A stretch of 64,000 nucleotides of DNA, taken from positions 896 through 64,895 of the forward strand of contig JBAYWE010000003.1 in NCBI GenBank assembly GCA_041674185.1. The letters are read 5' to 3'. Below, in pieces: positions 36,898 through 64,000 of the stretch (position 1 is the stretch's first letter; every line of letters starts with the position of its first letter). Below the pieces are notes generated by a model. That model was not told the DNA's origin. It did not search any database and worked only from the letters and a program-made list of their open reading frames with translations. The stretch is from Minisyncoccota bacterium. Lineage in GTDB: Bacteria > Patescibacteriota > Minisyncoccia > UBA6257 > JAGOQP01. Made by a program: the position numbers and the translations under genes.

Positions 36898-36905
36898 CAA
36901 AATAA

Positions 36906-37925: not shown

Positions 37926-37940
37926 TGAAAATATATTCAG

Positions 37941-38012: not shown

Positions 38013-38066
38013 GATTTGAAAAACCATCTCTTGTATTGTATTATACCAGCGCAGAGAAGAAAAGCT

Positions 38067-38137
38067 GGGCCCATAGTATAGCGGTAGAACGATTCCATGG
38101 CATGGAATAGGTCGGGGTTCGACTCCCCGTGGGTCCA
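38067..38137 (+). tRNA. tRNA-Ala (anticodon GGC)
   Basis: GGGCCCATAGTATAGCGGTAGAACGATTCCATGGCATGGAATAGGTCGGGGTTCGACTCCCCGTGGGTCCA. The G3:U70 Ala identity pair is present and the anticodon loop is ATGGCAT. Confidence 0.85.
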
Positions 38138-38334: not shown

Positions 38335-38399
38335 GGGATTTTATGTGGAGAGACTTTCCAAATTCTATTATTTTTTGTATAGTATATTTATATATTTAT

Positions 38400-38735: not shown

Positions 38736-38846
38736 TATTTTATAGAGGCGTGCCAAAGTCCTATCTGCGCTCTATCGGCTATAGCCTTTAGCAACGTACG
38801 ATCAGTAGGTATAAGTTCAATATGATATACTCACCTCGTACAATAT

Positions 38847-38935
38847 GGAGGGTTCGCATAGTGGTCTAGTGCGGCGCACTCGAAATGCGCTTGGGGAGTC
38901 AAATCCCCTCACAGGTTCAAATCCTGTACCCTCCG
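38847..38935 (+). tRNA. tRNA-Ser (anticodon CGA, long variable arm)
   Basis: GGAGGGTTCGCATAGTGGTCTAGTGCGGCGCACTCGAAATGCGCTTGGGGAGTCAAATCCCCTCACAGGTTCAAATCCTGTACCCTCCG. It has a 3-bp D-stem, anticodon loop CTCGAAA and a variable stem-loop GGGGA...CCCC. Confidence 0.8.
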
Positions 38936-39024
38936 CACATGAAACTTTACTCACTAAAAGTGAAATACATTTCATTCAAATAATAGAGAGAGTCATCTGA
39001 ATGAACAAGAAGAGACACACATCC

Positions 39025-45813: not shown

Positions 45814-47322
45814 TTATTTCTTATTCATAGTAATCTTGAAAACGATGGTGTTTTGATCTACCTGCGTAATACTTGTGAGAGGAAGTTGTACGTTTGTTAC
45901 AGAGGAAAGTTGCTCAAGTTTCCTTTTGAATTCAATCGCGGATTCTTCTTTATTTGTTCGAGCATTTAACGTAATACCCGAATCTGATGACTGTACATAG
46001 ATTCTATCGATCGCTACCAAGGGACCTGTTTGATTATATAAATCTGAGAGTACTGCGTGCCATCGTACTTGTTGATTTTGTACGGTAGATGCGCGTACTA
46101 CCGCATCATTAAATGCGGTTGCTTCCTGTTTTAATTCATTGTATCGCGTAACACTCGCAGAGGTAATTGAGGTATTCAAATCATCAGAAATAGTTCCCAC
46201 TAAATGGTTTAAAAATATATAAATTCCGATAAATGCCGCGAGAATAATAGTTCCTGATATGAGTATCATCGTACGCCACGCACCAATAAACGTATTTATT
46301 TGCGCTTGCAATAACATGCTTCGTGTATCTTCGGGAGTTAAGCTAATAGCTGTATCTTCTGAGCGGTCAATAACTCCTCGGAGTGCAGCACCTGCCCCCA
46401 CAAACCACGCCTCATCACTTGGTGCATTCGTAACGGTAAGAGGAAACACTCCAAATGAAAATTTATTTTTAAGAACTTCAAGAAGCTGTTTTTCCATAGC
46501 TCCCCCTATAATATATACTCCCGCAATAGGATCGTGATGCCTCCCTACAAAAAAGTTAGTCACCTGATGTATCTCTCGTATAATAAGCGTTGCAAAATCT
46601 GAAAAAATAATATCTCGCGTTGCGTGTATTTCTTTTAAAATTGTTTGCCATGAAGAAAATTTATCAAAGCAAAGATGTCCTCGAGTAATCACAGCCATAG
46701 TGATTCCATCACCTCCTATATGAAGTAATAAATATGATTTTGTTTTTACAAATGATGGTTCGCGTTGCACAATAAAACGAGCAAGAGACATGGACCTATG
46801 TTCAATTGCAACAGCTGAAAATCCCCCCTTTCTCAAACATCTTAAAAATATATCAATGATAGACTTTTCTACAAAAGAAGAAATAATTTCTACATCTGGA
46901 ACGTGTACCGTGGATTCTATTTTTTCCCATCCAGAATATGCCTCAGAAAAATTAATGGGAGAAATCGTCTGCATATTAAGTCGGACAGCCTCCTCAAACG
47001 ATCCCTCTGACAACTGAGGAAGGGTAAATAATTGCGTAAAAATATTCTCATCAGAAATAGTTACAATAACTGGAATTTCCTTTTTTTCTTTTGAGGTGAT
47101 CTGTTTATGTAACAGTTTTAGACTTTTTATAAATGCTTCTTGTTGTTTTATTTTTCCCTCTTGAATAATACCCGCTTCGAGAGGAACTGAATGCCGAGTA
47201 ACTCGGAGTGTTTCTGGCGCGATAGAAAAAAACACAATTCCTGCATCAGTTATTTCAAGCCCCCCAATCTCAATTTGAGGACGTACAATTCGTATAATTT
47301 TCTTTAGAAATAAAATATTCAT
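45814..47322 (-). CDS. type IV pilus assembly protein PilM-like fused to a PilN/PilO-like C-terminal region
   Basis: The N-terminal ~330 aa match an actin-like ATPase-fold PilM pattern. They are followed by a single TM helix (TMILISGTIILAAFIGIYIF) and a coiled-coil/periplasmic region as in PilN. The call rests on sequence pattern, not an HMM hit. Confidence 0.5.
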   Translation of the reverse strand: MNILFLKKIIRIVRPQIEIGGLEITDAGIVFFSIAPETLRVTRHSVPLEAGIIQEGKIKQQEAFIKSLKLLHKQITSKEKKEIPVIVTISDENIFTQLFTLPQLSEGSFEEAVRLNMQTISPINFSEAYSGWEKIESTVHVPDVEIISSFVEKSIIDIFLRCLRKGGFSAVAIEHRSMSLARFIVQREPSFVKTKSYLLLHIGGDGITMAVITRGHLCFDKFSSWQTILKEIHATRDIIFSDFATLIIREIHQVTNFFVGRHHDPIAGVYIIGGAMEKQLLEVLKNKFSFGVFPLTVTNAPSDEAWFVGAGAALRGVIDRSEDTAISLTPEDTRSMLLQAQINTFIGAWRTMILISGTIILAAFIGIYIFLNHLVGTISDDLNTSITSASVTRYNELKQEATAFNDAVVRASTVQNQQVRWHAVLSDLYNQTGPLVAIDRIYVQSSDSGITLNARTNKEESAIEFKRKLEQLSSVTNVQLPLTSITQVDQNTIVFKITMNKK

Positions 47323-47401
47323 GAGTCTTCGTTCCTGTCTTTTAGTATAATATAAAAACTATCGATTCACAAAATAAATCTGTCGCACCATGCTACTTTA
47401 T

Positions 47402-47860
47402 TTATAACTCGGTCAGTGACTGTTGATTTACTGAACCCAAATAACCATCTACCACAAAGATACTTTGAATTTGCACTCTCTTTGTTAATGCTCTTCCTGT
47501 TGCCACAACAGTATATTGACTAAATCGTGAGTCAATTGGTGTTTTTGTTACTGCAACTTGAACTGTAAAACTTCCTACTTGTATAGTATATGGACTTATT
47601 GAAGGTACCCAATCTTTGTTTCGTGCAATATGTAATAGTACATCAGAGATACCTGATTCCGCAGCTGCGGTCGCACTATATGACGCGCGTACCCCCATTC
47701 CTTGTTCACCCACTAGATACGCAACAACAAGCCCTACTAAAGCAGTTTCCATAATCACCGTACCAATAATCATTACCGTAGTAATAGAAACAACACCTCT
47801 CCGTACAGAATAATTCGAAGACGAACGAAGTTTTTGAAATATATTCAAAATCATATACAT
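47402..47860 (-). CDS. hypothetical membrane protein in the pilus-like cluster
   Basis: An N-terminal hydrophobic helix (VVSITTVMIIGTVIMETALVGLVVAYLV) followed by a Ser/Thr-rich beta-rich region. It has no canonical prepilin motif. Confidence 0.35.
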   Translation of the reverse strand: MYMILNIFQKLRSSSNYSVRRGVVSITTVMIIGTVIMETALVGLVVAYLVGEQGMGVRASYSATAAAESGISDVLLHIARNKDWVPSISPYTIQVGSFTVQVAVTKTPIDSRFSQYTVVATGRALTKRVQIQSIFVVDGYLGSVNQQSLTEL

Positions 47861-47871
47861 AGTCGTTATGT

Positions 47872-49479
47872 TTATTTACTCCAGTTAATCATTGATCCCA
47901 TGACTATAGGACCGGCTCCCCCACTGGGATTCAGGAAAATTTTATATCTAAAATATCGATAGTTATGAAAATTTTCTACATCAACTGATATATTAGAAGA
48001 TGCAGGAGAAAAATACGTTGATCCAGAGCCATCATATCCAGCATACCCCCATGGCCCGTCGGCATTGTTCGACATTGCGATCTGAAACTTTACATTTGTT
48101 CCCACCGGCTGTACCCCTTGCCATAACACACTATTAATCGCTGCACCTTGCGGTGTTTGAGTATCAAGTGTTGCTGACTCAAGCCATCCACTCACCGTAG
48201 TTGTTGCAAGACTAATCTGCCCCACCGTTGAAGTTGCGATATTATACGATGCAGCAAACGTACTGGTTGCGCTGGTAGTTGTTCCTGTGTTTCCAGGCCC
48301 TCCACTCCAATTATTATTATGTAATACAAAAATAGTATTTCTCATAAAATAATGGTAGAGCTGTAATTGTCTCCCCCCTTCCCACGTGACTCCCACAGTT
48401 ACTTTCTGAGTTGAAGGATCAACCACCCCTCCACTTGAAACAATATTTAAGTTTGTATCTCTATTTGTATTCTCTGTGAAAAAATATCTGTCATAAATAG
48501 GACTTTCATAAAGGCTTTTTATTTCTTCCGCACTTAATGCGCGATTATAGACCCGCGCATCATCAACAAGACCATTTAATCTGTAATTACCCACATACGC
48601 ATACGACCACTGTCCTACAAATATTTTATCAGGAGTAAACCTAACTGTTTTACTTAAATTCCACTTACTATCAAATTCACCGTTGATATAAAAACTAATG
48701 GAATTATCGTTTGTGCTGTATATAAGAACAACGTGGGACCACGTATTCGTGGGTACCACAAAATTACTTTGTTTAGAATTATATTCTCTCGTCCCATCGG
48801 TATATCCTATAGATGGAGCAAATCTACTGCTCACAATATTGATTCCGATATTTGATGGAACGGTATAATTATGAGTCGTTAAAACTCCAACCAGACTACT
48901 AACTGCTCGTGGATACACCCATACGGAATATGTTTGATCTGAACTTAAAGACACATCATTATCGCTCTTCGCATATGCATTATTAGTCCCATTAAAATCT
49001 AGGCATCCACCCGCTATACAACCGGGGGAAGAGATACGAGCAGGATCTCCTGTTGTAACTCCATCATTTCCATTTCCTGAAGTATCATATGTGGTTGTTC
49101 CTATATCTTCATCAAACTTCCACTGCCCTATCAACCCAGCAGTCACATCATTATATAAAACACTTTCAGTACCTGGAATAATAACGGTTGCTGATCCTCG
49201 TTGATTTAAAAAATAGTGATTCGTAGATCCTTTTGAAAGGTCATATAGTCCATGCCAATCTGAATTAGCTAATAACTGTACCTGATTTAAAACATCGTTT
49301 GCATATCCCGACGCAGCTTGATTTCCTCGCGTCTCAAAACTGTAGCGTAAAATAGAAGTTACCCCTAACGTTGCTCCTAACAAAAACATACCTCCCACAA
49401 ACAACGAAATTAACAACTCGATGAGAAGTTGTCCGTCATTTGCGTTTTTAAGCTTTTTGAAAAAATCTAACATACACAA
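47872..49479 (-). CDS. type IV pilin-like protein with a LamG/concanavalin-like domain
   Basis: The N-terminal class-III-type signal DGQLLIELLISLFVGG has Gly at -1 and Glu at +5. A W.FDEDIG....D.SGNGNDG motif is typical of the LamG-like jellyroll. Confidence 0.55.
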   Translation of the reverse strand: MCMLDFFKKLKNANDGQLLIELLISLFVGGMFLLGATLGVTSILRYSFETRGNQAASGYANDVLNQVQLLANSDWHGLYDLSKGSTNHYFLNQRGSATVIIPGTESVLYNDVTAGLIGQWKFDEDIGTTTYDTSGNGNDGVTTGDPARISSPGCIAGGCLDFNGTNNAYAKSDNDVSLSSDQTYSVWVYPRAVSSLVGVLTTHNYTVPSNIGINIVSSRFAPSIGYTDGTREYNSKQSNFVVPTNTWSHVVLIYSTNDNSISFYINGEFDSKWNLSKTVRFTPDKIFVGQWSYAYVGNYRLNGLVDDARVYNRALSAEEIKSLYESPIYDRYFFTENTNRDTNLNIVSSGGVVDPSTQKVTVGVTWEGGRQLQLYHYFMRNTIFVLHNNNWSGGPGNTGTTTSATSTFAASYNIATSTVGQISLATTTVSGWLESATLDTQTPQGAAINSVLWQGVQPVGTNVKFQIAMSNNADGPWGYAGYDGSGSTYFSPASSNISVDVENFHNYRYFRYKIFLNPSGGAGPIVMGSMINWSK

Positions 49480-49584
49480 TTTTTAAGCACACATTTTTGA
49501 ATTTTTAAATAAGGTATCAATGTTTTAAATTTTAAAAATTAGGTTTTATTTATAAAATTACAAAATTAAAAATTATAAAACTTT

Positions 49585-50712
49585 CTAATAGCTCTCATAT
49601 AATGCTTTCACCTCACTTGTTGCAAGCGCACGATTATACACCCGCACATCATCTAATAATCCCTTTACCCTATCCCAATGTCCAGAGAAAAAAAGTGGAT
49701 TTGATTGATACGATATTGACCCTGTTACTGTCTGACATTCCTTCATAACTCCATTCATATAAATACATTGCTGTTTTGATGTATTATCAAAAGTTCCCGT
49801 GAGATACACCCACTCATTCCAATTTATTTTCTGCGTTCCAAAATATTGACCCGTAAGACCATTTAATCCCCACTTAAAAGTTCCATCAGAATTTACTTCA
49901 GTCGTATATCCATACCACGTAGTTACCAACACGTGCCGTTTTGATTGATTTTGTAGATTAGCCCAAAAACTAAGCGTTATAGAACTCGGTTTATAAGTCG
50001 CATTATTGGGAATACTGATTTCATCATTAATTCCATCAAAACCCAAACACCCCCCTGTCCTGCACAGTCCTGAACTTGAAGATTGCCATGTTGGACTATT
50101 ATTGAGAGTTCCTGTATGTCCTTTCCCCGATGCATCATACGCGTTCACTCCTATCTCCTCGTCAAGAGGCCAATATGCCACCAAATCTTTTCCCGATAAT
50201 TGACTTACGGATGATGATTTACTAACGGAGATAATATTCGCATCACCTCCCGCTGCTGTTTGAATACCAACGGTTTGTGCTACATCTGGCACTCCTGTTG
50301 TTTTAGAAAAAATAATAACCTTAGAAAAACCAGTTGAAGGATTAGAAAATTTTGAAGCACGGCTCAATGTTTGAGTTGTTACTACTGAAGATGTGGTATA
50401 TGTGGTACCTGAAAATATCTGGTAGGTATCACTTTCTGAACCAGTACTGGGATTAAATTTAATTCCCCACGCAGTCCCCTCCTCTCCTAAAATAGCTTTA
50501 TTTTGAGCACTACGAATACCTTCTAATATATTGGTACTATCTAATTGAAAACTGTGACGATTCTTATAACTCGTTAAATTGAGAATACCTATTCCAGTAA
50601 TAATAGAAAGAATTGTTACGGAAATAAGCATTTCTATCAACGTAAATCCTCCCCGCGCAGAATACGATGGTGTACAAATTTTATTATATTCTTCTCTGAA
50701 CGCATCTTTCAT
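49585..50712 (-). CDS. type IV pilin-like protein with a LamG/concanavalin-like domain
   Basis: A canonical prepilin N-terminus, RGGFTLIEMLISVTILSIITGIGIL, and an AYWPLDEEIGVNAYDASGKGHTG LamG-like motif. Confidence 0.6.
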   Translation of the reverse strand: MKDAFREEYNKICTPSYSARGGFTLIEMLISVTILSIITGIGILNLTSYKNRHSFQLDSTNILEGIRSAQNKAILGEEGTAWGIKFNPSTGSESDTYQIFSGTTYTTSSVVTTQTLSRASKFSNPSTGFSKVIIFSKTTGVPDVAQTVGIQTAAGGDANIISVSKSSSVSQLSGKDLVAYWPLDEEIGVNAYDASGKGHTGTLNNSPTWQSSSSGLCRTGGCLGFDGINDEISIPNNATYKPSSITLSFWANLQNQSKRHVLVTTWYGYTTEVNSDGTFKWGLNGLTGQYFGTQKINWNEWVYLTGTFDNTSKQQCIYMNGVMKECQTVTGSISYQSNPLFFSGHWDRVKGLLDDVRVYNRALATSEVKALYESY

Positions 50713-53715: not shown

Positions 53716-54578
53716 TTTACGATTCCCGACATCGTAAGATATAATAATAGAAACAAATAAATATGAGAAAAATATCTTTCTCCAATGACGGTATCTATCA
53801 TATTTTTAATAGAGGAGTCGATAAAAGAACTATATTTCTAGAAGACGGTGATTATTTTAGATTCATACATGATTTATATGAATTTAATGACGAATCACCA
53901 GCGGAGAATATTTATTACAAAACCTCCTCCTTACAATCTTACGATGTCGGGAATCGTAAGATACAAAAAAAGGTGCGAACCTTACTTGTTGATATTATTG
54001 CATTTTGTATAATGCCCAATCATTTTCATTTACTTGTAAAACAACGTGTAGAAAATGGCATTACATTGTTTATGAAAAAACTCGGAGGAGGATATGCAAA
54101 TTATTTTAATACAAAAAATGAACGATCAGGAACCTTGTTTCAAGGACGGTTTCAGGCAGTTCCTATTGATACAGATGAATATCTCACGTACATTCCATTT
54201 TATATTCACGCCAACCCCATAGAACTGTATGATCCAGGGTGTAAAGAATCTGGTTTTTCAAAAAACAAAAAAGATGTTTTACATTTCTTAGAATCTTATA
54301 GGTGGTCAAATTTTCCAGATTGTATAGGTAAGAAAAATTTTCCCTCGGTTACACAAAGAGATTTTATTCTGAATTATTTTGGCGGACCTCTTCAATATAA
54401 AAAATATATGCTGAATTGGATGGATCGATTTGCTTCTTCAAAAATTTCTGCAAATACAACTACAAAAATAGAAGTGTCGGACAGAGACATGCGAGATATC
54501 ACCCTAGACTAGAGACTAGACTCGAAACTACTAGACTAAAAGTTATATTTATGTTCTTACGATTCCGGGAATCGTAAG
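53716..54578 (+). mobile_element. IS200/RAYT-like HUH transposase unit with REP-like hairpins
   Basis: Three copies of the 23-bp imperfect palindrome CTTACGAT-N7-ATCGTAAG lie at 53716-53738 (upstream, inverted loop), 53938-53960 (inside the CDS) and 54556-54578 (downstream). They bracket the transposase gene 53763..54512. Confidence 0.5.
53763..54512 (+). CDS. IS200/IS605-family (Y1 HUH) transposase / REP-associated tyrosine transposase-like
   Basis: YHIFNRG near the N-terminus, the HUH motif MPNHFHLLV, and a catalytic Tyr region YIPFYIHANPI, matching the Y1 transposase (Transposase_17) pattern. A C-terminal extension of about 100 aa is present. Confidence 0.65.
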   Translation: MRKISFSNDGIYHIFNRGVDKRTIFLEDGDYFRFIHDLYEFNDESPAENIYYKTSSLQSYDVGNRKIQKKVRTLLVDIIAFCIMPNHFHLLVKQRVENGITLFMKKLGGGYANYFNTKNERSGTLFQGRFQAVPIDTDEYLTYIPFYIHANPIELYDPGCKESGFSKNKKDVLHFLESYRWSNFPDCIGKKNFPSVTQRDFILNYFGGPLQYKKYMLNWMDRFASSKISANTTTKIEVSDRDMRDITLD

Positions 54579-54741: not shown

Positions 54742-57700
54742 ATGATACGCGTACCATTTTTACAACAGCGGAGAGGTTTTTCGTTGGCCGAACTTATTAT
54801 CTATTTGGGTATTCTCGGTATATCAGCCGGGATTTTCGGTGGTATGTTAAATACCATCAGCACTACTCAAATTGCGGAGTTTAATCAGAATGAAGTTTCT
54901 GGACAATTAAACTTTGCTATACAAACTATTCAACGTTATGTACGCGCGGCAAGTATTATAGAAGGAGAATCAGGAATTCCGAGTTCTACGCTTGTATTAC
55001 AGATGCCTGTTGCCGCACAAAATCCAACAAGCATTTCTCTGCAGAATAATCGTATTTATATTACTCAGGGAGCAACGGGGACACCACTTGCCATTACGAA
55101 TGATAAAGTTTCTATTGATAATTTAGAATTTCGTCGTTTTGCACAACCTGCCTCAAAAGATGTTGTCCAAATTGATATTGCTATCTCACAAGAATCAGCC
55201 GGAGGAAAACGTATTGCTCGTTCATTGCGCTCCGCTATTACTCGTGTGAACGCCGCTGCATTTGATAGCGATCTTATTCCTAATTCCGACGGTTCATATA
55301 ATGTGGGTACGTACCCTTCCGCACGATGGCGTGACGGATCATTTTCTGGACAAGTTTCCGCTGGATCATTTTGTTTTGCTTCTGATTGTCGTACATCGTG
55401 GGCAAACATCGCAGGAGTAAGTGGAAGTGGAAGCGCAAATTATATTGCAAAATGGAATACTGCAAGTACCATTAACGCCTCAACTCTTATTTATGATAAC
55501 GGCACCAATGTAGGAATCGGTGCTATTAACCCTGGATACAAACTCGATGTACAAGGCGGACAAATTAATACTTCAGGTGGACTTTGTATTAACGGTGATT
55601 GTAAAACAGCGTGGTCTCAAATTGCGGGCACCCAGGCGTGGACGGCAACCGGAACCAGTATTTATTACAACACGGGAAATGTAGGGATTGGAATGGTAAA
55701 TCCGGGATCAAAACTAGATGTTTTAGGTGATATTCGATCAGGAACTTCGTACCGAACCAGCATCCAAGGAGATGGTTCTGGAGCAAGGGTTCTATTTGGA
55801 TCTGAAGGAGATCCAGATTATTTAGGTATTATTGGAGCTTTCGCATCAATGATGCAAATTGATAGTTATAATGGACCACTTGTATTTAAGGAGGCTGGTT
55901 CTGAAAAAGTTAGAATTACTTCCGGTAACGTTGGCATTGGAACAACAGCACCTGGTGCCAAACTACATGTTTCTGGAGGGAGTATTTTAATGGATAATAA
56001 CCTTGCATTTAAATTCAAAGATTCCACAGGAACTGCACAAAATGTATTCTTCGCTGGTACTGATAACGTACTCTATATTCAACCGCTTAACGTAACCAAG
56101 GGAACTTCTATTCAATATGGAAATCTTGGTGTAGGTACTAACGTACCCACCGCAAAGCTACAAGTGAATCCCGGAACCGCGGTTGAAGGAATTCGTATTA
56201 TTTCGAGTGACTACTCCCCTTTTATTATTCGTAACTCTGCCGACACTGCTGATTTGTTCCGCGTAGATCAAAATGGAAATATTACTGGAGGAACAGGAAA
56301 TGCAAGTGCATGGACACGTAATTCAACCAGTGGCTATTTATATACAAGTACTTTAACCGACAAAGTTGGTATTGGAACAGCAACACCCGGAACCTATAAC
56401 GGCGTCGTATCTGGTTTAGAAGTAAAAGGATCTAGTCATACCGGAATAGCGATTAATTCTCCAACGGATTATGCGGCAAGTCTTACTTTGGCTGAAAATA
56501 ATAATCCTATGTGGCACTTACTCTCCAGAGGAGATTCTGCTAATAGATTTGAATTATATGCTGCTGATGGAACAAGTAATGGAGCAAAAATAACTGTATT
56601 GCAAGGTGGAAATGTGGGTATTGGAACGATAGCACCAACATCAAGATTGGTAGTAAGTTCCTCAGGTATATCAGCTGGAACACCAGAATTTGTTGTTGGT
56701 GATTATGGAACAATAAAATTAAAAACATATCAAACTGGAAGTACTTATGCTGCGATTTATACAGGAGCTAATGAAGATTTAAGAATTACTGCTGGGACAG
56801 ATAGTTCTCAATTAGTATTAAAAGCAAACAATGGAAACGTCGGTATCGGGACTGCCTCCCCTGCTCAAAAACTATCTGTTGCGGGAACTATAGAATCAAC
56901 TTCAGGTGGTGTTAAGTTTCCTGACGGCACCACACAAACCACTGCATATGCAGGAGGGACTCAAACAATTGTTTCCGGAAATGTTTCCTCAGGTGCGTTT
57001 GGTAGTAATACGGGGGGTGGAAATTATAGTTTTCCGGGTAATGTGGGGATAGGGACAACAAGTCCGGGAAAAACCTTGCATGTGGTAGGCGATGTTCGTG
57101 GTGGAGCTTATTATAATACGAACTCTGGCGACGGTTGGTTGATAAATCAGGATTCGGGAACAAACCGAGGACTATATTATTACAATACCGCAGGAACTTG
57201 GGATTTCTTTGACGGAGGTACATCAAAGGTAAGTATCAACACCAGTGGGAATATACAAATGGACGGAGTATTAACAATAAGTGGGACAGGAAATACAACA
57301 ATAGCCGGTAACGTCGGTATCGGAACAACGGCACCTCAATCTACTGTTAAACTTGATGTTCGACAAAGCCTCACAAACGGCACTGCTATTGCTGGATATG
57401 TTTATGACGCTACCCAAGAAATAACGGCACTATACGGTGTTGCCTATCCAACAACAGGTAGCGCGGCAGCGTATGGAATGCGAGGTGAGGCAGGTGGCAC
57501 ACGTACAACTGGAACAAATATCGGTGGTTACTTTTCTGCAAGTGGTGCAACAAATAATTATGCTTTGATTACAGGAGGTGGCAACGTCGGTATCGGTACT
57601 GCCTCCCCTGCTCAAAAACTATCTGTTGCGGGAACTATAGAATCAACTTCAGGTGGTGTTAAGTTTCCTGATGGTACTACACAGACAACTGCATATGCAG

Positions 57701-59970
57701 GAGGAACCCAGACAGTGGTAGCGGGAAATGTATCTTCGGGTGCGTTTGGTGCAAATACTGGCGGTGGAAATTATAGTTTTCCAGGTAATATGGGAATTGG
57801 AGTAGCAAGTCCTTCGTATAAATTGGAGATTGGAGCTTTGAGTGGTTCTGTAGAACCCACGAGCTTGAAAATAAATGGTGGTGCAACCAATGTTACTCAG
57901 ATTCGTATTGGTGATAACTATACCGCAGCAGTTGGTACTCGATATTCTGGAGCAGAGGCTTACCTATCGAGTAACTCTTATCAGAATACATTAGGAGCTG
58001 ACTCATGGGCTAAAACAGCAACCACATACGGATCAACCATGCTTTCTTTGGGAATTAGTTCTACTTTAACTTCACCAGCACTTCAAGTTAAATTTTCTCC
58101 GGCAAGTACAGCAAATGGAGCTATAGCCTCTTTCTTCCCAAATGATTTATTTACTATTCTCGGTAATGGAAGTGTTGGTATTGGAACGGTATCACCCGGA
58201 GGAAAATTAACTGTGGATGGATCTGGAGAGACACTCATTAAGTTGCAATCAGGTGGCACTGAGTTTGGTGAAATCGGCACCTATTCGAGTGGTTTGATAA
58301 TAGGTACCAATACCGCTGTTCCGTTGACTTTAGAAACCAGCAATACGGCAAGAGTAACTGTTCTCGGTGGTGGTAATGTGGGTATTGGAACGACGAGTCC
58401 GGGAGCAAAATTACATATCCAAACTGATACCTCAGGAACGCAAATACCATTTGATATCTACGGATATAGAACAGCAGCACCAGCAAGTGCTACTCATTTA
58501 GCCCAAATATCTCAAATAGGAACTTATGGCCAAGGTGTTTTGGATCTATATAACTCCGCCCAGGTTAGTGCTATTCATCTTGCAACAGATGGTAACAGTT
58601 ATATAGTACCGCAAAATTCTGGCAACTTTGGTATCGGAACCACTACTCCTGCTACAGCACTTCATGTCGTTGGTACAGTAACCGCGAGTGCTTTTAGTGG
58701 TGCTCTTTCAGGAACGGTAACCGCCCCGAATGTATCTTCTGGTGCGTTTGGTGCAAATACCGGAGGTGGAAATTATAGCTTCCCTGCTAATGTCGGTATT
58801 GGAATTGCAAGTCCGGGAAGCCAGCTACATGTTTATTCAGCAACAACAGGTATCTTTACTTTAGAGGGGGCTACTACAGGTGCTTATACGGCAGCTGACA
58901 TGCTTCTAAAAAGCAGCGGCTCATCTGGTATGCGGGGTACAGGAGTATTTATGTATGATTCTCTAGCACAGAAAGAATGGTATGCGGGAACTCCATATAG
59001 TGCTACTGATTCTTACATGATTGGAAGAAAATCCTCGGTTGCTAGTCACGATTCATCGATTGCCCAAACATCAAACGCTCTATTGGTTATTAATAACACC
59101 GGCAACGTCGGAATTGGAATAGCAAATCCGGTAAAAAAATTACAGGTACATGGAGATATAGCCCTATCAAATGGAGGAAGGATCGGACAAGGAAATGGAT
59201 GGGGCACTGATGGTAATTCTTATAATGCGACTTTAGAACTATATAATGGAGCAACCGGATATACTACTCTACAATCCGCAACAGCTTATGGGATATTACT
59301 CAATCCTTCGGGTGGCAATGTCGGCATCGGGACGACGGCACCGAACTATAAACTACATACTTATGTTGCTTCTGGAAATACAGAAAATAGATTTCAGACT
59401 GCTGGAACAGGATATGCTGCACTAAGCTTAATTAATAACACAAATAATTTATATGTAGGAGTTAATGATAGTATAGGAACAGGAATGTTTTCTTCGGGAG
59501 GTATAGCAAATGCTGGAGCATTATATACCCTTGGGAGTTATCCATTACAATTAGGAACTTCAAATCTTCCCAGAGTTACAATTGACAGCGCCGGCAACGT
59601 CGGCATCGGGACGACGGGGCCTACCCATAAACTTGATGTATCTGGTTCATTTTATTCTCGTCTTATTACCAAGGGCAATTGTACTGGTGCGGTTACCATT
59701 GATTGGAATGCAGGAAACACCCAACATTGTGTACTTACCGGAAATGTGACCTTCACCTTCTCAAATGGACAAAGCGGAGGTAACTATAAATTGGTCTTAA
59801 AACAAGGCGGTACCGGATCATACACGATCACGTGGCCTGGAACGGTGCGTTGGGGTGGAGCTGTCTCCCCCACACTCACCACTACCGTGGGTAAGAGCGA
59901 CTATGTAGGATTCTTCTACAACGGAGTAGATAGTACGTATGACGGAAATGCATTTAATGCAAACTTCTAA
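54742..59970 (+). CDS. giant (1742 aa) pilin-like protein with a class III signal peptide and tail-fibre-like GNVGIGTTxPxxKLxV repeats
   Basis: The N-terminus QQRRGFSLAELIIYLGILGISAGIFGG has G-F at the cleavage site and Glu at +5. The body holds more than 20 copies of a (G)NVGIGT(T/A)SPxxKL(H/S)VxG motif, which resembles the phage tail-fibre repeat (Phage_fiber_2-like) consensus. The repeats are separated by Gly/Thr/Ser-rich beta segments. Confidence 0.65.
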   Translation: MIRVPFLQQRRGFSLAELIIYLGILGISAGIFGGMLNTISTTQIAEFNQNEVSGQLNFAIQTIQRYVRAASIIEGESGIPSSTLVLQMPVAAQNPTSISLQNNRIYITQGATGTPLAITNDKVSIDNLEFRRFAQPASKDVVQIDIAISQESAGGKRIARSLRSAITRVNAAAFDSDLIPNSDGSYNVGTYPSARWRDGSFSGQVSAGSFCFASDCRTSWANIAGVSGSGSANYIAKWNTASTINASTLIYDNGTNVGIGAINPGYKLDVQGGQINTSGGLCINGDCKTAWSQIAGTQAWTATGTSIYYNTGNVGIGMVNPGSKLDVLGDIRSGTSYRTSIQGDGSGARVLFGSEGDPDYLGIIGAFASMMQIDSYNGPLVFKEAGSEKVRITSGNVGIGTTAPGAKLHVSGGSILMDNNLAFKFKDSTGTAQNVFFAGTDNVLYIQPLNVTKGTSIQYGNLGVGTNVPTAKLQVNPGTAVEGIRIISSDYSPFIIRNSADTADLFRVDQNGNITGGTGNASAWTRNSTSGYLYTSTLTDKVGIGTATPGTYNGVVSGLEVKGSSHTGIAINSPTDYAASLTLAENNNPMWHLLSRGDSANRFELYAADGTSNGAKITVLQGGNVGIGTIAPTSRLVVSSSGISAGTPEFVVGDYGTIKLKTYQTGSTYAAIYTGANEDLRITAGTDSSQLVLKANNGNVGIGTASPAQKLSVAGTIESTSGGVKFPDGTTQTTAYAGGTQTIVSGNVSSGAFGSNTGGGNYSFPGNVGIGTTSPGKTLHVVGDVRGGAYYNTNSGDGWLINQDSGTNRGLYYYNTAGTWDFFDGGTSKVSINTSGNIQMDGVLTISGTGNTTIAGNVGIGTTAPQSTVKLDVRQSLTNGTAIAGYVYDATQEITALYGVAYPTTGSAAAYGMRGEAGGTRTTGTNIGGYFSASGATNNYALITGGGNVGIGTASPAQKLSVAGTIESTSGGVKFPDGTTQTTAYAGGTQTVVAGNVSSGAFGANTGGGNYSFPGNMGIGVASPSYKLEIGALSGSVEPTSLKINGGATNVTQIRIGDNYTAAVGTRYSGAEAYLSSNSYQNTLGADSWAKTATTYGSTMLSLGISSTLTSPALQVKFSPASTANGAIASFFPNDLFTILGNGSVGIGTVSPGGKLTVDGSGETLIKLQSGGTEFGEIGTYSSGLIIGTNTAVPLTLETSNTARVTVLGGGNVGIGTTSPGAKLHIQTDTSGTQIPFDIYGYRTAAPASATHLAQISQIGTYGQGVLDLYNSAQVSAIHLATDGNSYIVPQNSGNFGIGTTTPATALHVVGTVTASAFSGALSGTVTAPNVSSGAFGANTGGGNYSFPANVGIGIASPGSQLHVYSATTGIFTLEGATTGAYTAADMLLKSSGSSGMRGTGVFMYDSLAQKEWYAGTPYSATDSYMIGRKSSVASHDSSIAQTSNALLVINNTGNVGIGIANPVKKLQVHGDIALSNGGRIGQGNGWGTDGNSYNATLELYNGATGYTTLQSATAYGILLNPSGGNVGIGTTAPNYKLHTYVASGNTENRFQTAGTGYAALSLINNTNNLYVGVNDSIGTGMFSSGGIANAGALYTLGSYPLQLGTSNLPRVTIDSAGNVGIGTTGPTHKLDVSGSFYSRLITKGNCTGAVTIDWNAGNTQHCVLTGNVTFTFSNGQSGGNYKLVLKQGGTGSYTITWPGTVRWGGAVSPTLTTTVGKSDYVGFFYNGVDSTYDGNAFNANF
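56839..57800. repeat. near-identical internal DNA repeats (period 747 bp) within the giant pilin-like gene
   Basis: gtcggtatcgg(g/t)actgcctcccctgctcaaaaactatctgttgcgggaactatagaatcaacttcaggtggtgttaagtttcctga occurs at 56839 and 57586. A third, more diverged copy lies near 58736. Confidence 0.6.
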
Positions 59971-60035: not shown

Positions 60036-60608
60036 ATGACTATAGATAAAAAGACTTTATATATTATCATCGGTGTTGTGGTACTTATCATCGCAGGACT
60101 TATTGGATTACTTCTTGCACAAAGTGATAACACCTCTTCTTCAGCCAATCCAGCTAATCCAACTTCTCAAGATGGAGGCTCAGGAACTCCCCTTTCTGAG
60201 ACACACGCAGAAGTTCCTCAAGACATAGAGGTTCCTGATTTAAGCGCAACTGCTACCAGTGTTCCTGAGGACGTTGCTATCCCCAAAGCAGTTACTTCTG
60301 CCGCCCCTGGTGTTTCTGCTTCATTACGCGTATTTGAAATTAAAGGAGAGAATGGTACCTTTAGTCCTTCAACGGTTATTGCCTACACCGGAGATACGAT
60401 ACATGTGAATTTTACCGCCGTTGATAAAGAATATGATATTACGTTTCCTGACTATAATATGAAACAAACGGCATCAAAAGGACAAACAAAAGTTCTTGAG
60501 TTTCAAGCACAAGCAACAGGGAAATTTACCTACTACTGTGATCTCTGTGGTGGATTAAAATCAAAAGCTGTTGGATATATTATTGTAGCTCCTCTGAAGA
60601 CTCAATAA
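60036..60608 (+). CDS. membrane-anchored protein with a cupredoxin-like C-terminal domain (paralog 1 of 3)
   Basis: TM helix, a Ser/Thr/Pro-rich linker, then FSPSTVIAYTGDTIHVNFTAVDKEYDITF...GKFTYYCDLCGG...GYIIV. This resembles the cupredoxin beta-sandwich pattern but lacks the full Cu-ligand set. Confidence 0.35.
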   Translation: MTIDKKTLYIIIGVVVLIIAGLIGLLLAQSDNTSSSANPANPTSQDGGSGTPLSETHAEVPQDIEVPDLSATATSVPEDVAIPKAVTSAAPGVSASLRVFEIKGENGTFSPSTVIAYTGDTIHVNFTAVDKEYDITFPDYNMKQTASKGQTKVLEFQAQATGKFTYYCDLCGGLKSKAVGYIIVAPLKTQ

Positions 60609-60718: not shown

Positions 60719-61270
60719 ATGCACAAAATTTTAAACCATACCAAAGTTATTTTTGTTATTGTAGGAGTTTTTCTTCTCTGCGGCATTGCTCTGATTATGT
60801 ATTCATCCTCTCCTACTAATTCTCATCAAGACACCTCTCTTATAACACCTATTGCTTCATCAACCACACCTTCTGTATCATCTATCCCCCAACCATCATT
60901 TCAACCATTTACAGAACAACATCCTGATTCTTATACTCTGTCAAAACCAGACCAACTTATTCCTGCACCTATAAAAACAAACGACACCAGAAAGACAAAA
61001 TTGTTTTATTTACAGGAAACGATTGATGGATTTACTCCCGATCATATTGTTATTGAACGAACTGATCGTGTGCGTATTCAATTTACTGCAGTTGATGATG
61101 CATACGATCTTGCTATTGCTCCTCCTATTGGAGCCTACATTGCCGCGGCGCATGGAGGCTCTACTTTATTTGGATTTGACGCACATTATATTACCCCTGG
61201 CATATATACTTTTGTCTGTCAGAAGTCGTGTCCCCCTCGTTACGCACAGGGAACTCTGGTTATTAAATAA
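60719..61270 (+). CDS. membrane-anchored protein with a cupredoxin-like C-terminal domain (paralog 2 of 3)
   Basis: The same architecture as paralog 1: FTPDHIVIERTDRVRIQFTAVDDAYDLAI...GIYTFVCQKSCPPRYAQGTLVIK. Confidence 0.35.
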   Translation: MHKILNHTKVIFVIVGVFLLCGIALIMYSSSPTNSHQDTSLITPIASSTTPSVSSIPQPSFQPFTEQHPDSYTLSKPDQLIPAPIKTNDTRKTKLFYLQETIDGFTPDHIVIERTDRVRIQFTAVDDAYDLAIAPPIGAYIAAAHGGSTLFGFDAHYITPGIYTFVCQKSCPPRYAQGTLVIK

Positions 61271-61325: not shown

Positions 61326-61826
61326 ATGAGTACTGAAAATGGTGGATCAACAAAATCCACAAAAATAGTCACCGGCGTGGTGGCAGTTATCGTTATTATT
61401 ATTATTGCGTTGTTTGTTTTCCTCTCCCCCTCTTCACCGGAGTCAACAACAGACACCACAAACCCAGCTACTGAAGATAGCGCCCTTCCTCCTGAAAATG
61501 CGTCTACTACCGGTGGCGCTGCAGGTGGCGCATTTGGTGATATAAAAGATGTTGATAAGATTTATGAAATAAAAATGGATAAGGGAGCATTTAGTCCTGT
61601 GAGTACTGTTGTTTCTAAGGGCGCAGTTGCTCGTATCGCTTTTTCTGCAATAGATGGGGATTACAATGTTTCATTTGCATCTCCTATTGATATGAATATC
61701 AATTTGAAAAAAGGACAAGCAGCACTCGTTCCGTTTGATGCTCAGAAAAATGAATCGGGAGAATATGCATTTACCTCAAAAGATGCTGAAGGAAAAACCA
61801 TGACGGGAAAAATTGTTATCAAATAG
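61326..61826 (+). CDS. membrane-anchored protein with a cupredoxin-like C-terminal domain (paralog 3 of 3)
   Basis: The same architecture as paralogs 1 and 2: FSPVSTVVSKGAVARIAFSAIDGDYNVSF...GEYAFTSKDAEGKTMTGKIVIK. It contains no Cys. Confidence 0.35.
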   Translation: MSTENGGSTKSTKIVTGVVAVIVIIIIALFVFLSPSSPESTTDTTNPATEDSALPPENASTTGGAAGGAFGDIKDVDKIYEIKMDKGAFSPVSTVVSKGAVARIAFSAIDGDYNVSFASPIDMNINLKKGQAALVPFDAQKNESGEYAFTSKDAEGKTMTGKIVIK

Positions 61827-61847: not shown

Positions 61848-64000
61848 ATGACACCAACTTTTTTGCGTGATTTTAGTCTTTCTGCACTACTGTCACGCAA
61901 AATATATCTTACGGTCGTCTTTTTCGCTTTCATTGTACTGGCTTCATTTTTCATGGAGCCAGTTTCTATTGCCGAAGCTGCTTTATGGAACAACTGCGAT
62001 GGAGGCTGTCAAACTGAATATTTTTGTTCTGGATATACTCGATACTATAACGAACCTGATTGGGAAGATTGTACCGGAGCCTGTATTCCTTACGTTGTTC
62101 AATATAACTCTCCTGCGTGCGGATGGAATAACTGTGTAGGAGTAACCTGTAATCCTTATTGTTCAGGTACAACGGCTTATTACAATGGATATTGTTCCAA
62201 CGGAGCTTGTTATTATTCTACCGACAACTGCGCAAATGGATTTTGTGATGGTATGACTCCCTATGCAGGAGCGGGTTGTTCTGGTGGATCCTGTATGAGA
62301 ACCGCCGGAAGTGCTTGTCCTTCTTCCACCTGTTCAGGCACCACCTATTTATATAATGGATATTGTTCGGGAGGTGGTTGTGGATATTCTTCTTCATCAA
62401 TTACCGCAGGAACCTGTGGAGCGACCTGCACCCCAGGTGCTTCTCGCGTACGTTATAGAACTTATTCTGTCGCCTGTGGATATAGTGGTGCGAGTGAAAC
62501 GCAATACTGTAATGCGAGTGGTACTGGATGGTCTGGTACATTTACTGATACCACCTATACCACCTCATCTCGTACTGCATATTCAGCACTCACTTCTTCG
62601 TGCGGAACATATGGATATTCGAGTGAATCTCAAATATGTTATAACTCTGGTAGTTGGTCAGGAACATTTACCCTCACCTCACCTCCTACCGTTACCTCAC
62701 GAACACGATATAACCCGCAAACTAATTCATGTGGTACCTACGGATATACGAGTGAGGGTCAAACGTGTCAATCAAATGGTTCTTTCAGTGGATCGTATAC
62801 ACTCACCAGTCCTCCTTCCAATTCAACACGGTATATGTATGCTCCCGCAACTTCTGCGTGCGGAACCTACGGTACCATGGGAGAAACACAAACGTGTTCG
62901 GCGGGTGGATGGAGTGGTACTTTTACTTATTCATCCCCACCTGCATATTCAACACGAGTGAGACATGCAGCAAATACATCTTCTTGCGGAACGTATGGGT
63001 ATTCTTCTGAATCACAAACATGTCTTTCAAGTGGTAGCTGGTCAGGATCCTATACACTTGCCTCACCTCCCTCTACAAGCAGTAGAACTATGTATGCACA
63101 ACTCTTTTCTGCGTGCGGAGCATATGGATCAACTTCAGAAACACAATATTGTCAATCGAGTGGAAGTTGGACTGGAAGTTATACGTGGGCATTTGCACCA
63201 CCCTCTAGCTATAGAACTGTTTATGGACCACTTACTTCAGCGTGTGGTACCTATGGATCAACTGCCGAAACACAATATTGTCAATCGAGTGGCGCATGGA
63301 CTGGTACTGGACTAACCATGGGATCACCTCCCTCAAATACAACTCGCTTACGATATGGAGCGCTTACTTCTGCGTGTGGTACCTATAGCATTGATAGTGA
63401 AACACAAACCTGTTTATCAAATGGATCTTTTAGTGGTACGTATTCTCTAACTTCCCCACCAAGTATAACAACGAGAACTAGATACGGAGCGCGTACCTCT
63501 GCGTGTGGAATATATGGATCAGATAGCGAAACACAGACCTGTGGATATAATGGAGCGTGGTCTTCTGTTATGGGATACACTCTTACCTCTCCTCCATCTG
63601 CTGATACTCGTACACGATATGCTGCTGCAACTTCAGCCTGTGGAACATACGGAGCATCTAGTGAGAGTCAATCGTGTCAGTCAAGCGGTTCTTGGTCTGG
63701 AAGTTATTCACTAACTTCTCCCCCATCTGCTGATACTCGTACACGATACACCTCTCTCACTTCAGCCTGTGGAACGTATAGCTATACAAGTGAGAGTCAA
63801 TCATGTCAGTCAAGCGGTTCTTGGTCTGGAAGTTATTCACTAACTTCTCCCCCATCCAATACAACGAGAACGCGCTATACCGCTTTAACAAGCGCGTGTG
63901 GTACGTATAGCTATGATTCCCAAACTCAAACCTGTCAATCAAATGGAAATTTTGATGGAACGTATGCTCTCGCCTCACCTCCTTCATATCCTACAACTCG
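61848..64000 (+). CDS. secreted Cys-rich protein with 12 or more tandem ~43-aa repeats, 3' partial (continues past the window end)
   Basis: Manual translation from the ATG at 61848 gives MTPTFLRDFSLSALLSRKIYLTVVFFAFIVLASFFMEPVSIAEA, then a region with about 30 Cys (CSGTTAYYNGYCSNGACYY, CSGTTYLYNGYCSGGGCGY). Twelve repeats follow, of the form TRxRYxxLTSACGTYGxxSE(T/S)QxCQSSGSWSGSYxLTSPPS (DNA period about 120-129 bp). There is no stop before base 64000. The ORF track missed it and instead shows spurious ORFs in frame +1 and on the minus strand. Confidence 0.6.
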   Translation, partial: MTPTFLRDFSLSALLSRKIYLTVVFFAFIVLASFFMEPVSIAEAALWNNCDGGCQTEYFCSGYTRYYNEPDWEDCTGACIPYVVQYNSPACGWNNCVGVTCNPYCSGTTAYYNGYCSNGACYYSTDNCANGFCDGMTPYAGAGCSGGSCMRTAGSACPSSTCSGTTYLYNGYCSGGGCGYSSSSITAGTCGATCTPGASRVRYRTYSVACGYSGASETQYCNASGTGWSGTFTDTTYTTSSRTAYSALTSSCGTYGYSSESQICYNSGSWSGTFTLTSPPTVTSRTRYNPQTNSCGTYGYTSEGQTCQSNGSFSGSYTLTSPPSNSTRYMYAPATSACGTYGTMGETQTCSAGGWSGTFTYSSPPAYSTRVRHAANTSSCGTYGYSSESQTCLSSGSWSGSYTLASPPSTSSRTMYAQLFSACGAYGSTSETQYCQSSGSWTGSYTWAFAPPSSYRTVYGPLTSACGTYGSTAETQYCQSSGAWTGTGLTMGSPPSNTTRLRYGALTSACGTYSIDSETQTCLSNGSFSGTYSLTSPPSITTRTRYGARTSACGIYGSDSETQTCGYNGAWSSVMGYTLTSPPSADTRTRYAAATSACGTYGASSESQSCQSSGSWSGSYSLTSPPSADTRTRYTSLTSACGTYSYTSESQSCQSSGSWSGSYSLTSPPSNTTRTRYTALTSACGTYSYDSQTQTCQSNGNFDGTYALASPPSYPTT
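62440..64000 (+). repeat. coding tandem repeats (about 123-129 bp per unit, 12 or more units) within the Cys-rich protein gene
   Basis: For example, ccatctgctgatactcgtacacgata...gtcagtcaagcggttcttggtctggaagttattcactaacttctccccca occurs at 63594 and 63723 with more than 90% identity. Confidence 0.65.

Follow-up and report, generated by a model that had tools for sequence, protein, structure and literature searches.

The window analysed here, which is the whole stretch of 64,000 nucleotides, carries near its 3' end a cluster of plus-strand genes that closes with a 3'-partial open reading frame (ORF) for a Cys-rich tandem-repeat protein (61848..64000, + strand). The first gene of this same-strand cluster is probably that of a giant pilin-like protein of 1742 aa (54742..59970, +), which has a prepilin-type N-terminus, GFSLAELIIYLGILG, and many GNVGIGT repeats; its N_methyl motif scored E 0.0018, below Pfam's cut-off. 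Three genes for cupredoxin-like membrane proteins, all on the + strand, lie between the two. Paralogue 1 (60036..60608) is membrane-anchored, matches Pfam Cupredoxin_1 at E 9e-9 and carries YYCDLCGG...GYIIV. Paralogue 2 (60719..61270) has a weak Cupredoxin_1 match and aligns with paralogue 1, while paralogue 3 (61326..61826) was assigned by alignment and by a Cupredoxin_1 match at E 1.7e-6, contains no Cys and ends 21 nt upstream of the repeat ORF. A conserved C-x2-3-C...G-H motif was also observed in the cupredoxin-like partner. Genes for PilM and a LamG pilin-like protein were located 11-16 kb upstream. Scanning for promoters and terminators gave nothing above chance, and this includes terminator-like sites from the giant pilin-like gene to 61848. 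No thiol-oxidoreductase gene was found within the window, and a viral contig scan returned nothing.

As the first-pass annotation had stated, the reading frame that opens with the ATG at 61848 reaches the last base of the window, 64000, without a stop. In frame 1 it spans 717 codons with 45 Cys, and the closest upstream in-frame stop ends at 61826. The ENA contig ERZ27247358 k141_1183446 contains the window and extends 331 nt beyond its end, and when the frame was followed into this extension no stop was met through 828 codons, the contig ending inside the repeat array. The independent Logan assembly SRR6484325 encodes an identical protein across 619 codons. Homologues of the ORF were detected with a best E of 3e-99, and an orthologue occupies the same genomic position in the related locus L003. 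The gene had been described as unannotated, which does not hold, since the ENA gene call already includes it, with a product of 828 residues that is cut by the end of the contig; the Logan gene call on its short contig chose out-of-frame ORFs instead. Two further searches were aimed at the stop codon. The N-terminal 240 aa, used as the query of a JGI metagenome scan, retrieved zero relatives, and 159 related proteins contained no high-identity fragment overlapping the last units (best 70%). We conclude that the ORF is a genuine gene, incomplete at its 3' end, whose product is secreted, rich in Cys and built of tandem repeats.

The N-terminus reads like a Sec-type signal, in agreement with the signal-like character first ascribed to it. 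A putative signal peptide (aa 1-44; 61848..61979, +), read from the sequence, consists of a basic n-region, a 17-residue hydrophobic core, IYLTVVFFAFIVLASFF, and the residues AEA/ALW, between whose two halves cleavage would occur; the xA/ALW junction is kept in the homologues P0001 and P0160. The N-terminus (MTPTFLRDFS...AEA/ALW) was also examined as a type IV pilin, and neither a prepilin motif (G followed by F-T/S-L-x-E and a hydrophobic helix) nor an N_methyl match was present. The signal peptide is followed by a Cys-rich module (aa 45-197; 61980..62438, +), delimited by its Cys positions and by sharing among homologues (P0001, P0004, P0017 and P0160). It is built of hairpin-like CSGxTxYYxGYCSxGxCYYS sub-units and contains 21 Cys (aa 50-194) instead of the about 30 counted before; of the CSGTTxYxNGYCSxGxC units reported earlier, two are exact copies and the other two are of a variant form. 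The module gave zero matches against Pfam and NCBIfam, and EGF-like and defensin sequences in the PDB matched it weakly (E 0.05-0.3), which is a lead only. A word-index search with the module retrieved a single protein, the L003 fragment, and its AlphaFold2 model (pLDDT 41.7) was unusable.

Downstream of this module, a local HMM parse resolved 12 tandem units of 42-45 aa with two Cys each (aa 198-714; 62439..63989, +), in agreement with the original count of at least 12 two-Cys repeats. Units 1-4 span 62439-62567, 62565-62693, 62694-62822 and 62823-62948; units 5-8 span 62949-63077, 63078-63209, 63207-63338 and 63339-63467; units 9-12 span 63468-63602, 63603-63731, 63732-63860 and 63861-63989, all on the + strand. 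Unit 13 starts at 63990 and runs past the window end (63990..64000, +), the source contig (L001) holding units 13, 14 and a cut 15, which brings the total to 15 units (14 complete and one cut). The consensus is xTRTRYxALTSACGTYGxxSETQTCQSxGSWSGxYTLTSPPSx. The 12 window units scored 50-79 bits each against the unit HMM, a partly circular test because this HMM derives from units of the protein itself; independent support comes from 18 homologues, whose units scored as high as 76 bits against it. No longer run of two-Cys units was found than that of this protein, with 14 units versus at most 8 elsewhere, and among two-Cys units Y6, Y35 and S39 are conserved at 99%, 89% and 94%, respectively.

For neighbouring repeats a DNA identity of over 90% had been stated, a figure that the codon-aligned units did not reproduce: over 78 pairs the identity averaged 60% (range 50-84%), and only units 10 and 11 reached 84%. 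Divergence between units was 0.70 at synonymous (pS) and 0.30 at nonsynonymous sites (pN), silent sites being near saturation. Judged from these values, the array is old and has been under purifying selection across its units, because its DNA identity is only 50-84% and its silent sites are nearly saturated. Recent expansion of the array was ruled out by the same silent-site divergence. Tandem Repeats Finder detected the last 2-3 units only.

The first reading had not recognised the repeat, and it is indeed in no curated library. No Pfam or NCBIfam model covers it in the window protein or in its close and distant homologues; no significant match was obtained among PDB sequences either. A unit profile built from alignment A2 retrieved 409 proteins at E<=1e-3 among 1.84e9 cluster representatives. 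The unit profile is characterised by R3, Y6, C13/G14, S20-E21-x-Q23-x-C25, G29, an aromatic residue at 31, G33 and Y35, and the 12 window units match it. By these searches the 43-residue repeat constitutes a previously undescribed family, defined here from uncurated sequences. It is not an orphan, since hhalign ties the 43-aa unit to a 49-52-aa, four-Cys long form (probability 98.2%, E 6e-14, positions 2-40), and at the profile level the unit is a shortened two-Cys derivative of this wider family of about 50 aa. The long form occurs in large bacterial lipoprotein-like proteins such as P0022 (43 copies), P0031, P0044 and P0055; it is uncurated, and searches of Pfam and NCBIfam, and of PDB sequences with its profile, likewise found nothing. 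Both forms share an RTxY strand, a SExQxxC strand and a C-x3-G-x-[WFL]-S-G-x-Y segment. Only the long form has an additional N-terminal stretch, C-x-x-N/T-x-HG, which bears C1, together with a C2-C4 pair. C1, C2 and C4 are all missing from the window units, in which a new Cys has been acquired at the tip of the hairpin.

Comparison of loci supports the link to the pilin-like gene that had been suggested from adjacency. In L003 the gene order is kept, LepA being followed by the giant pilin-like gene, then by the three cupredoxin-like genes and the repeat protein; the pilin-like orthologue there (999 aa, 50% identical) holds the same position, and paralogue 2 has an orthologue. A repeat protein also lies near a pilin-like gene in the Patescibacteria loci L004, L005, L010, L018 and L020, and in P0003 and P0008 a prepilin N-terminus and the same repeats are joined in a single polypeptide. 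Cupredoxin-like genes are frequent near repeat genes, not universal: homologues of paralogue 1 occur in 13 of 23 related loci, and in L006, L007, L008, L011, L023 and L025 a cupredoxin-like homologue lies 2-11 nt downstream of the repeat gene. Homologues combine the repeat with fn3, F5/8 type C (discoidin) and MopE-type motifs. The last of these (PF11617, DxDGDGY...C...DCxD) adjoins the repeats in P0003, P0005 and P0017 and is absent from the 828 available residues of the present protein. The C-terminal part of orthologues comprises a four-Cys cap unit and an fn3-like domain, to which P0004 adds a discoidin domain. Close relatives with a named source come from Patescibacteria, except for one bin labelled Gammaproteobacteria; likewise, the 11 GTDB loci belong to Patescibacteria lineages or unclassified bacterial MAGs, bar one "Gammaproteobacteria" bin.

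Three consecutive units (aa 586-714) were modelled by AlphaFold2 with a pLDDT of 97.2, a confidence that is possibly inflated, as the alignment consisted of shifted paralogous unit triplets and not of independent orthologues. In every unit, residues 2-11 and 14-25 were predicted as strands, with isolated bridges at W31 and L37; the predicted fold is a long two-stranded beta-hairpin with an irregular segment after it. Foldseek searches with this model gave no significant match (best E 1.4 in PDB and 2.1 in BFVD). Given the predicted strands, C13 would occupy the turn, and C25 would follow on the strand after twelve residues. Since the two Cys of one module would thus lie at opposite hairpin ends, they could not bond to each other.

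Cys covariation was analysed over 865 units of 158 proteins, with 598 unit junctions. C2 and C4 covary (both present in 767 units, neither in 82, discordant in 16). Units without a hairpin-tip Cys are followed by exactly one linker Cys at 425 of 430 junctions, and units with a tip Cys by 0, 2 or 4 linker Cys (107, 59 and 2 junctions, respectively), never by 1. This parity rule, by which a tip Cys accompanies an even linker Cys count, is obeyed at 593 of the 598 junctions; those of the present protein are all of the type with a tip Cys and 0 linker Cys. Where adjoining units differ (n=15), 13 junctions are consistent with a bond across the next junction, and 2 with the opposite direction. Most likely, the hairpin-tip Cys of module n bonds to the base Cys of module n+1, partners that are proposed from strand lengths and covariation and not from measured S-S distances. 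A C13-C25 disulfide within the unit was rejected, because the predicted hairpin does not allow it and both junction parity and the 13:2 test speak against it. The parity rule alone is compatible with C13(n)-C25(n), so that only the hairpin prediction, the 13:2 test and cases like P0004 exclude this pairing. Cys counts at the array ends were too noisy for an additional test, as flanking domains have their own Cys.

With moderate confidence we propose that this Sec-exported protein of Patescibacteria (CPR) consists of the 21-Cys module and at least 15 modules that serve as the disulfide-linked stalk of a surface or adhesion protein. Each module would contribute a hairpin (TRTRYxALTSA / GTYGxxSETQTC) and then the segment QSxGSWSGxYTLTSPPS, which most likely runs back along the hairpin, a direction that we infer. 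Bonding of the tip Cys of module n to the base Cys of module n+1 would give a covalently linked, single-layer beta rod of about 3.5-4 nm per module, or about 50-60 nm for 15 modules, as estimated from strand lengths. The rod would most likely act as a stalk or spacer holding the C-terminal part, beyond the contig end, away from the cell, and may form part of a pilus-associated surface apparatus by which episymbionts contact other cells. The label "adhesin or fibre-associated" given by the first-pass annotation is the best available reading; pilin-like synteny and the prepilin-repeat fusions P0003 and P0008 support the association, and the adhesive function is putative. Large Cys-rich extracellular proteins of CPR bacteria, for which an attachment role was proposed, are strain-variable and weakly similar to Myxococcus Cys-rich repeats (PMC4736985). 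Compared by class description, the present protein resembles them in being large, very Cys-rich and signal-peptide-bearing; the class was described in general terms, without a defined repeat family, structure or disulfide pattern (PMC4736985). Families of MdbA-like oxidoreductases and VKOR are enriched in CPR (bioRxiv 10.1101/335083), and episymbiosis of Saccharibacteria is driven by type IV pili (PMC11623550).

A bolder form of the proposal, which we consider doubtful, is that the unit represents an undescribed single-layer beta fold without a hydrophobic core, which would owe its stability to the disulfides from hairpin tip to the base of the next module and so form a continuous covalent nanorod, and that the rod, the membrane-anchored cupredoxin-like proteins and the giant pilin-like protein together make up a dedicated host-contact apparatus of Patescibacteria, in which the cupredoxin-like partner would be required for oxidative assembly or anchoring of the rod.

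It is also conceivable, if unlikely, that the modules themselves are the binding elements, a multivalent array for a repetitive host-surface ligand such as a cell-wall glycan or teichoic acid, with repeat number setting the avidity. The strong conservation of Tyr, Trp and Ser/Thr at positions that disulfides do not need, the purifying selection on all units and the exceptional length of the two-Cys run (14 versus at most 8) would fit such an array. However, in a single-layer beta structure conserved residues may be merely structural, and the orthologues P0001 and P0004 have separate candidate binding domains (fn3 in both, discoidin in P0004) after just 3-5 units.

Descent from the Sushi/CCP/SCR module (PF00084) would make the repeat a divergent bacterial CCP, with ligands bound at the interfaces of beads-on-a-string modules. 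Both are small all-beta extracellular tandem modules with a local C-x3-G-x-W-S-G motif, and the unit profile picks up the three CCP modules that complement factor B and C2 contain (whole-sequence E 4e-4), with SxxRTCQxxGxWSG aligned. The top, non-significant Foldseek rows were SCR/CCP chains (E-selectin and C1r), and Cys covariation in the long form fits the 1-3/2-4 pairing by which the four Cys of CCP are bonded within the module, a pattern that the long-form repeats probably have; an aromatic residue separating C3 from C4 is a further feature common to the long form and CCP. Nevertheless, the single CCP stretches have i-E values of about 2 and cover 14-21 residues, the Foldseek hit has E 1.4 and probability 0.08, and the PDB search with the long-form profile, which is expected to lie nearer the ancestor, retrieved no CCP protein. 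Pfam Sushi matched 0 of the 25 proteins tested; the window protein, scanned at E<=0.1, and 19 homologues, scanned at E<=0.01, had no Sushi hit. CCP modules are about 60 aa long versus 43-52 aa for the repeat units, and the window units have two Cys, with bonding probably between modules. We regard this origin as quite improbable.

Still less probably, the unit would be a thrombospondin type 1 repeat (TSR) in rearranged form, a three-stranded layered fold in which the Arg of TRTRY stack with the Trp and Tyr of WSGSY. The TSR fold combines an Arg-rich strand with an irregular aromatic strand, of which the RxR strand and the irregular W/Y-bearing strand of the unit are reminiscent, and TSR (PF00090, PF19030, PF19035) is likewise an elongated, thin beta module. 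In the distant member P0022 the TSP1_CCN scores add up to 39 bits (E 9e-10), and canonical TSRs co-occur with the repeat in P0044 and in P0035, the latter with WSDWSTCSASCGGGTQTRSC. Yet no single TSP1_CCN stretch passes, the match spanning 14 of 44 profile positions, and in P0044 Pfam calls the canonical TSR but not the repeats of the same chain. The window protein has no Pfam match to TSP1 (PF00090 and relatives), and no TSR structure appeared in the Foldseek results. The order of elements and the Cys pattern also differ: in TSR a WxxW strand precedes CSxTCG and RxR, with six Cys, whereas in the unit the hairpin with RxR comes first and the irregular aromatic segment last, with two Cys. An assembly artefact of wrong repeat number or order, or a pseudogene, is hardly credible: both contigs terminate within the array and the L003 orthologue is broken by a frameshift near codon 146, but the 16-50% DNA difference between units allows short reads to place them uniquely, two assemblies concur over 619 codons, and the 828 codons without a stop are in a frame backed by homologues and by the pLDDT-97 model.

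The disulfide-linked stalk that we favour has a counterpart in working principle. In Gram-positive bacteria, the tandem thin beta modules of SasG/Aap (G5-E repeats) and of Rib domains form long, stiff adhesin stalks, rods that are not known to contain disulfides. The likeness would lie in a stalk that projects a binding region from the surface; there is no sequence or detected fold relationship, and the stiffness of the present repeat is proposed from its inter-module disulfides. No sortase signal was seen in the available 828 residues, the C-terminus lying beyond the contig end, and complete orthologues end in ...C-x-x-G-F-[FL]-x-[NE] without LPXTG.

Much of bacterial diversity falls within the Patescibacteria, which live attached to other microbes, and few of their contact proteins are known besides type IV pili. 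Their pilin-like and secreted surface proteins repeatedly contain a confidently modelled repeat module that is missing from curated libraries, and a curated profile of it would label several hundred hypothetical proteins. The module-to-module disulfide proposed here would be unusual, because in tandem extracellular modules disulfides mostly stay inside one module; if true, a stiff protein rod could be built in this simple way, and the number of repeats (at least 15 here versus 3-13 in relatives) would offer a natural means of setting the length needed to span a host envelope.

Translation of positions 61848-64000 (+) in frame 1 gave 717 codons with zero stops and 45 Cys, which upheld the first-pass annotation of a 3'-partial ORF open to the window end. 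The closest in-frame stop on the 5' side ended at 61826, with a gap of 21 nt between the preceding gene and the ORF. A 166-aa neighbour protein was used to locate the source contig (ENA ERZ27247358 k141_1183446, 73,496 bp), and the contig extension proposed for finding the stop gained 331 nt beyond the window; the stop was not reached, and the ORF was still open at the contig end at 828 codons. It had been described as unannotated, but was already present in the ENA gene call for this contig. A separate Logan assembly (run SRR6484325) encoded an identical protein across 619 codons. Two ORFs in another frame, of 216 and 116 aa, lie within the repeat region (window 62311-62961 and 62965-63315, +; 2764-3369 and 3373-3723 on the Logan contig L002). 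They had been called spurious; on the short Logan contig the gene caller picked them instead of the true frame, a kind of mis-annotation that can befall partial, repeat-rich genes where a contig ends. The repeat ORF is a real gene that can be characterised in part.

By local HMM parse, the window contains 12 units (aa 198-714; 42-45 aa each) and the contig 15, all with exactly two Cys, in agreement with the at least 12 two-Cys repeats noticed before. The N-terminal module contained 21 Cys and not about 30. Neighbouring repeats had been reported as more than 90% identical at the DNA level and recently expanded, but codon-aligned units (78 pairs) were 50–84% identical (mean 60%), with pS of 0.70 and pN of 0.30, and Tandem Repeats Finder picked up no more than the final 2-3 units. 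These values show an old array, not a recently expanded one, which is close to saturation at silent sites and evolves under purifying selection.

No Pfam or NCBIfam model matched the window protein at E ≤ 0.1, consistent with the repeat having gone unrecognised at first reading, and in 19 homologues, both close and distant, the repeat was likewise covered by none. Word-index searching among 5.8 billion proteins returned 18 homologues. An exhaustive search of 1.84 billion cluster representatives with a 67-unit profile matched 409 proteins at E ≤ 1e-3, of which 28 reached E ≤ 1e-30. The repeat family is real but rare. Its distant members P0022 (43 copies), P0031, P0044 and P0055 carry a four-Cys form of 49-52 aa, which hhalign aligned to the window-type unit with a probability of 98.2% (E 6e-14). 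The composition of these four proteins suggests non-CPR bacteria, possibly of predatory or social lineages; their N-termini have lipoprotein-type signals (LSTAAC, ISFQNC, LASYGC).

Cys patterns were classified for 865 units in 158 proteins. C2, C3 and C4 with an upstream C1 occurred in 577 units, the same set plus a hairpin-tip Cys (C1') in 189, and C1' and C3 only, the window type, in 82. Any two-Cys unit was present in only 27 of the 158 proteins, and the longest run of such units was that of the window protein (14 complete; others ≤8). Scanning one genome per GTDB species gave 11 repeat loci. Seven bear the labels Falkowbacteria, Paceibacter(ota), Parcubacteria, Saccharibacteria or Patescibacteria, another three have no label beyond 'bacterium', and the eleventh comes from a bin labelled Gammaproteobacteria whose cupredoxin-like protein is 53% identical to that of the window. 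The repeat was found on no contig in the viral contig scan. The family is uncurated, and its two-Cys form is mostly in Patescibacteria.

The repeat was not assigned to either of two known families, because their similarities to it are weak or partial. The unit profile matched the three CCP (Sushi) modules of complement factor B with a whole-sequence E of 4e-4, but each stretch was short (i-E ~2), the long-form profile found no CCP protein among PDB sequences, Pfam Sushi had zero matches among the window protein and the homologues scanned, and Foldseek of a three-unit model returned nothing significant. For TSR, the similarity came down to a partial summed score for a single distant member, and genuine TSRs were recognised separately from the repeat; canonical copies (WSDWSTCSASCGGGTQTRSC) occur in P0035 (aa ~470-510), P0044 (aa 598-654) and P0002 (aa ~950-1030), bacterial proteins that also bear the hairpin repeat.

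The three-unit model was predicted with AlphaFold2 for aa 586-714 from an alignment of 30 unit triplets of the window protein and homologues. The prediction is confident (mean pLDDT 97.2, pTM 0.72), with the caveats that each row of the alignment is a shifted triplet of paralogous units and that the model was read from its strand assignments rather than its coordinates. Each unit is predicted to form a long hairpin (strands at residues 2-11 and 14-25, turn at A12-C13), followed by an irregular segment in which W31 and L37 form isolated bridges. According to this model, C13 and C25 of one unit cannot bond with each other, since twelve strand residues part them in the hairpin, and covariation agrees.

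Comparison among units suggests that C2 and C4 form an intra-unit pair, because they are present together in 767 of the 865 units, absent together in 82 and discordant in 16. At 598 junctions of adjacent units, a parity rule was obeyed in 593: where the tip Cys was absent, exactly one linker Cys came next in 425 of 430 junctions, and where it was present, the linker contained 0, 2 or 4 Cys (107, 59 and 2 junctions) and never 1. By the same comparison, the single linker Cys would be C1 of the next unit and the partner of that unit's C3. Neighbouring units differ in the tip Cys at 15 junctions; 13 of these fit a tip Cys that bonds forward, over the junction after its own unit, and the remaining 2 fit the opposite direction. 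The final unit of P0004 has C2, C3 and C4 without a tip Cys, and its eight Cys are fully paired only if every tip Cys bonds to C3 of the next unit. In the window protein the linkers contain no Cys at any junction, so a bond from each unit's tip Cys to C25 of the next unit (n to n+1) is most likely. The inferred pattern is unusual and testable.

In MAG FK3.bin40 (L003), synteny with the window covers LepA (87% identity), a pilin-like gene, three cupredoxin-like membrane proteins and an orthologue of the repeat ORF. Near codon 146 a frameshift divides the orthologue in two (8140-8586 and 8576-11056), through an assembly error or because it is a pseudogene; its N-terminal fragment is recorded separately (P0160, 148 aa, on 8 contigs). 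The orthologue has 13 units by local HMM count with extra N-terminal Cys-motif copies interspersed, then a four-Cys cap unit and a C-terminal region of ~150 aa ending in YCTQGFFGN. This domain and tail also terminate P0001, P0004, P0028 and P0036, and the window protein probably ends in a similar way beyond the contig. These complete members share an fn3-like domain and the tail K-x-C-S-T-x(8-14)-C-x-x-G-F-[FL]-x-[NE]-stop, with neither LPXTG nor a terminal hydrophobic segment at their C-termini; the tail could be a so far unrecognised sorting or docking signal.

The giant pilin-like gene (54742-59970, +) encodes 1742 aa, against 999 aa in L003 (3431-6430) at 50% identity, which suggests repeat-number variation within the fibre protein itself. 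This protein is rich in GNVGIGT(T/A)xPxxKLxV repeats and had no Pfam match besides a sub-threshold N_methyl motif. Between LepA and this gene lies an IS200-like Y1 transposase (53763-54512, +; Pfam Y1_Tnp, E 3e-9), which looks like a lineage-specific insertion immediately 5' of the surface-protein cluster, since the corresponding L003 interval (LepA end 3213 to pilin-like start 3431) has no ORF of ≥100 aa. The position beside a giant pilin-like gene noted at first reading recurs: the order is kept in L003, and pilin-like genes are near the repeat gene in L004, L005, L010, L018 and L020.

Three tandem cupredoxin-like, membrane-anchored small proteins (60036-60608, 60719-61270 and 61326-61826, +) directly precede the repeat ORF. 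Members beside repeat proteins share F-x-[FY]-x-C-x2-3-C-x-G ... G-H-I-V-V; paralogue 1 partially matched the C-terminal domain of the NosZ model (E 8e-10, well short of the cut-off), and paralogue 3 has lost both Cys. Homologues were seen in L003-L012, L018, L020, L023 and L025. Such a homologue was present in 13 of 23 related loci, and in six of the 13 (L006, L007, L008, L011, L023, L025) it lies 2-11 nt 3' of the repeat gene. A pilus-related cluster (45814-50712, -) comprises a PilM-like gene (45814-47322), a LamG-domain protein (47872-49479), with homologues near repeat proteins in L006, L008, L011, L023 and L025, and an N_methyl + LamG pilin-like gene (49585-50712). A 1361-aa protein with many fn3-type domains (7202-11287, -; Pur_ac_phosph_N, PhoD_N, fn3 and a phage tip-attachment-protein-J Ig-like match) is a further large candidate surface protein. 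With 37% GC, housekeeping genes, PilM and LamG-bearing pilin-like genes, the window looks like a Patescibacteria chromosome segment. It has 12 tRNA genes in 64 kb, of which 4 are clustered at 12545-13420 and 7 at 36433-38936.

In P0003 and P0008 a prepilin N-terminus is followed by the same repeats in a single polypeptide, and partner domains in other homologues include fn3, F5/8 type C, MopE-type motifs and canonical TSRs. An attachment role has been proposed for large Cys-rich extracellular CPR proteins (PMC4736985), CPR are enriched in MdbA-like and VKOR disulfide machinery (bioRxiv 10.1101/335083), and Saccharibacteria episymbiosis is driven by type IV pili (PMC11623550). For the window protein, a setting at the cell surface and in adhesion is plausible but unproven. 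Synteny, domain partners and CPR literature combined support a putative exported surface protein whose repeat array would be a stiff spacer in a pilus-associated contact apparatus. Rod-forming tandem repeats are a feature of Gram-positive adhesins, and the array may work most like these; unlike them, disulfides, probably inter-module, would replace a hydrophobic core in the window protein.
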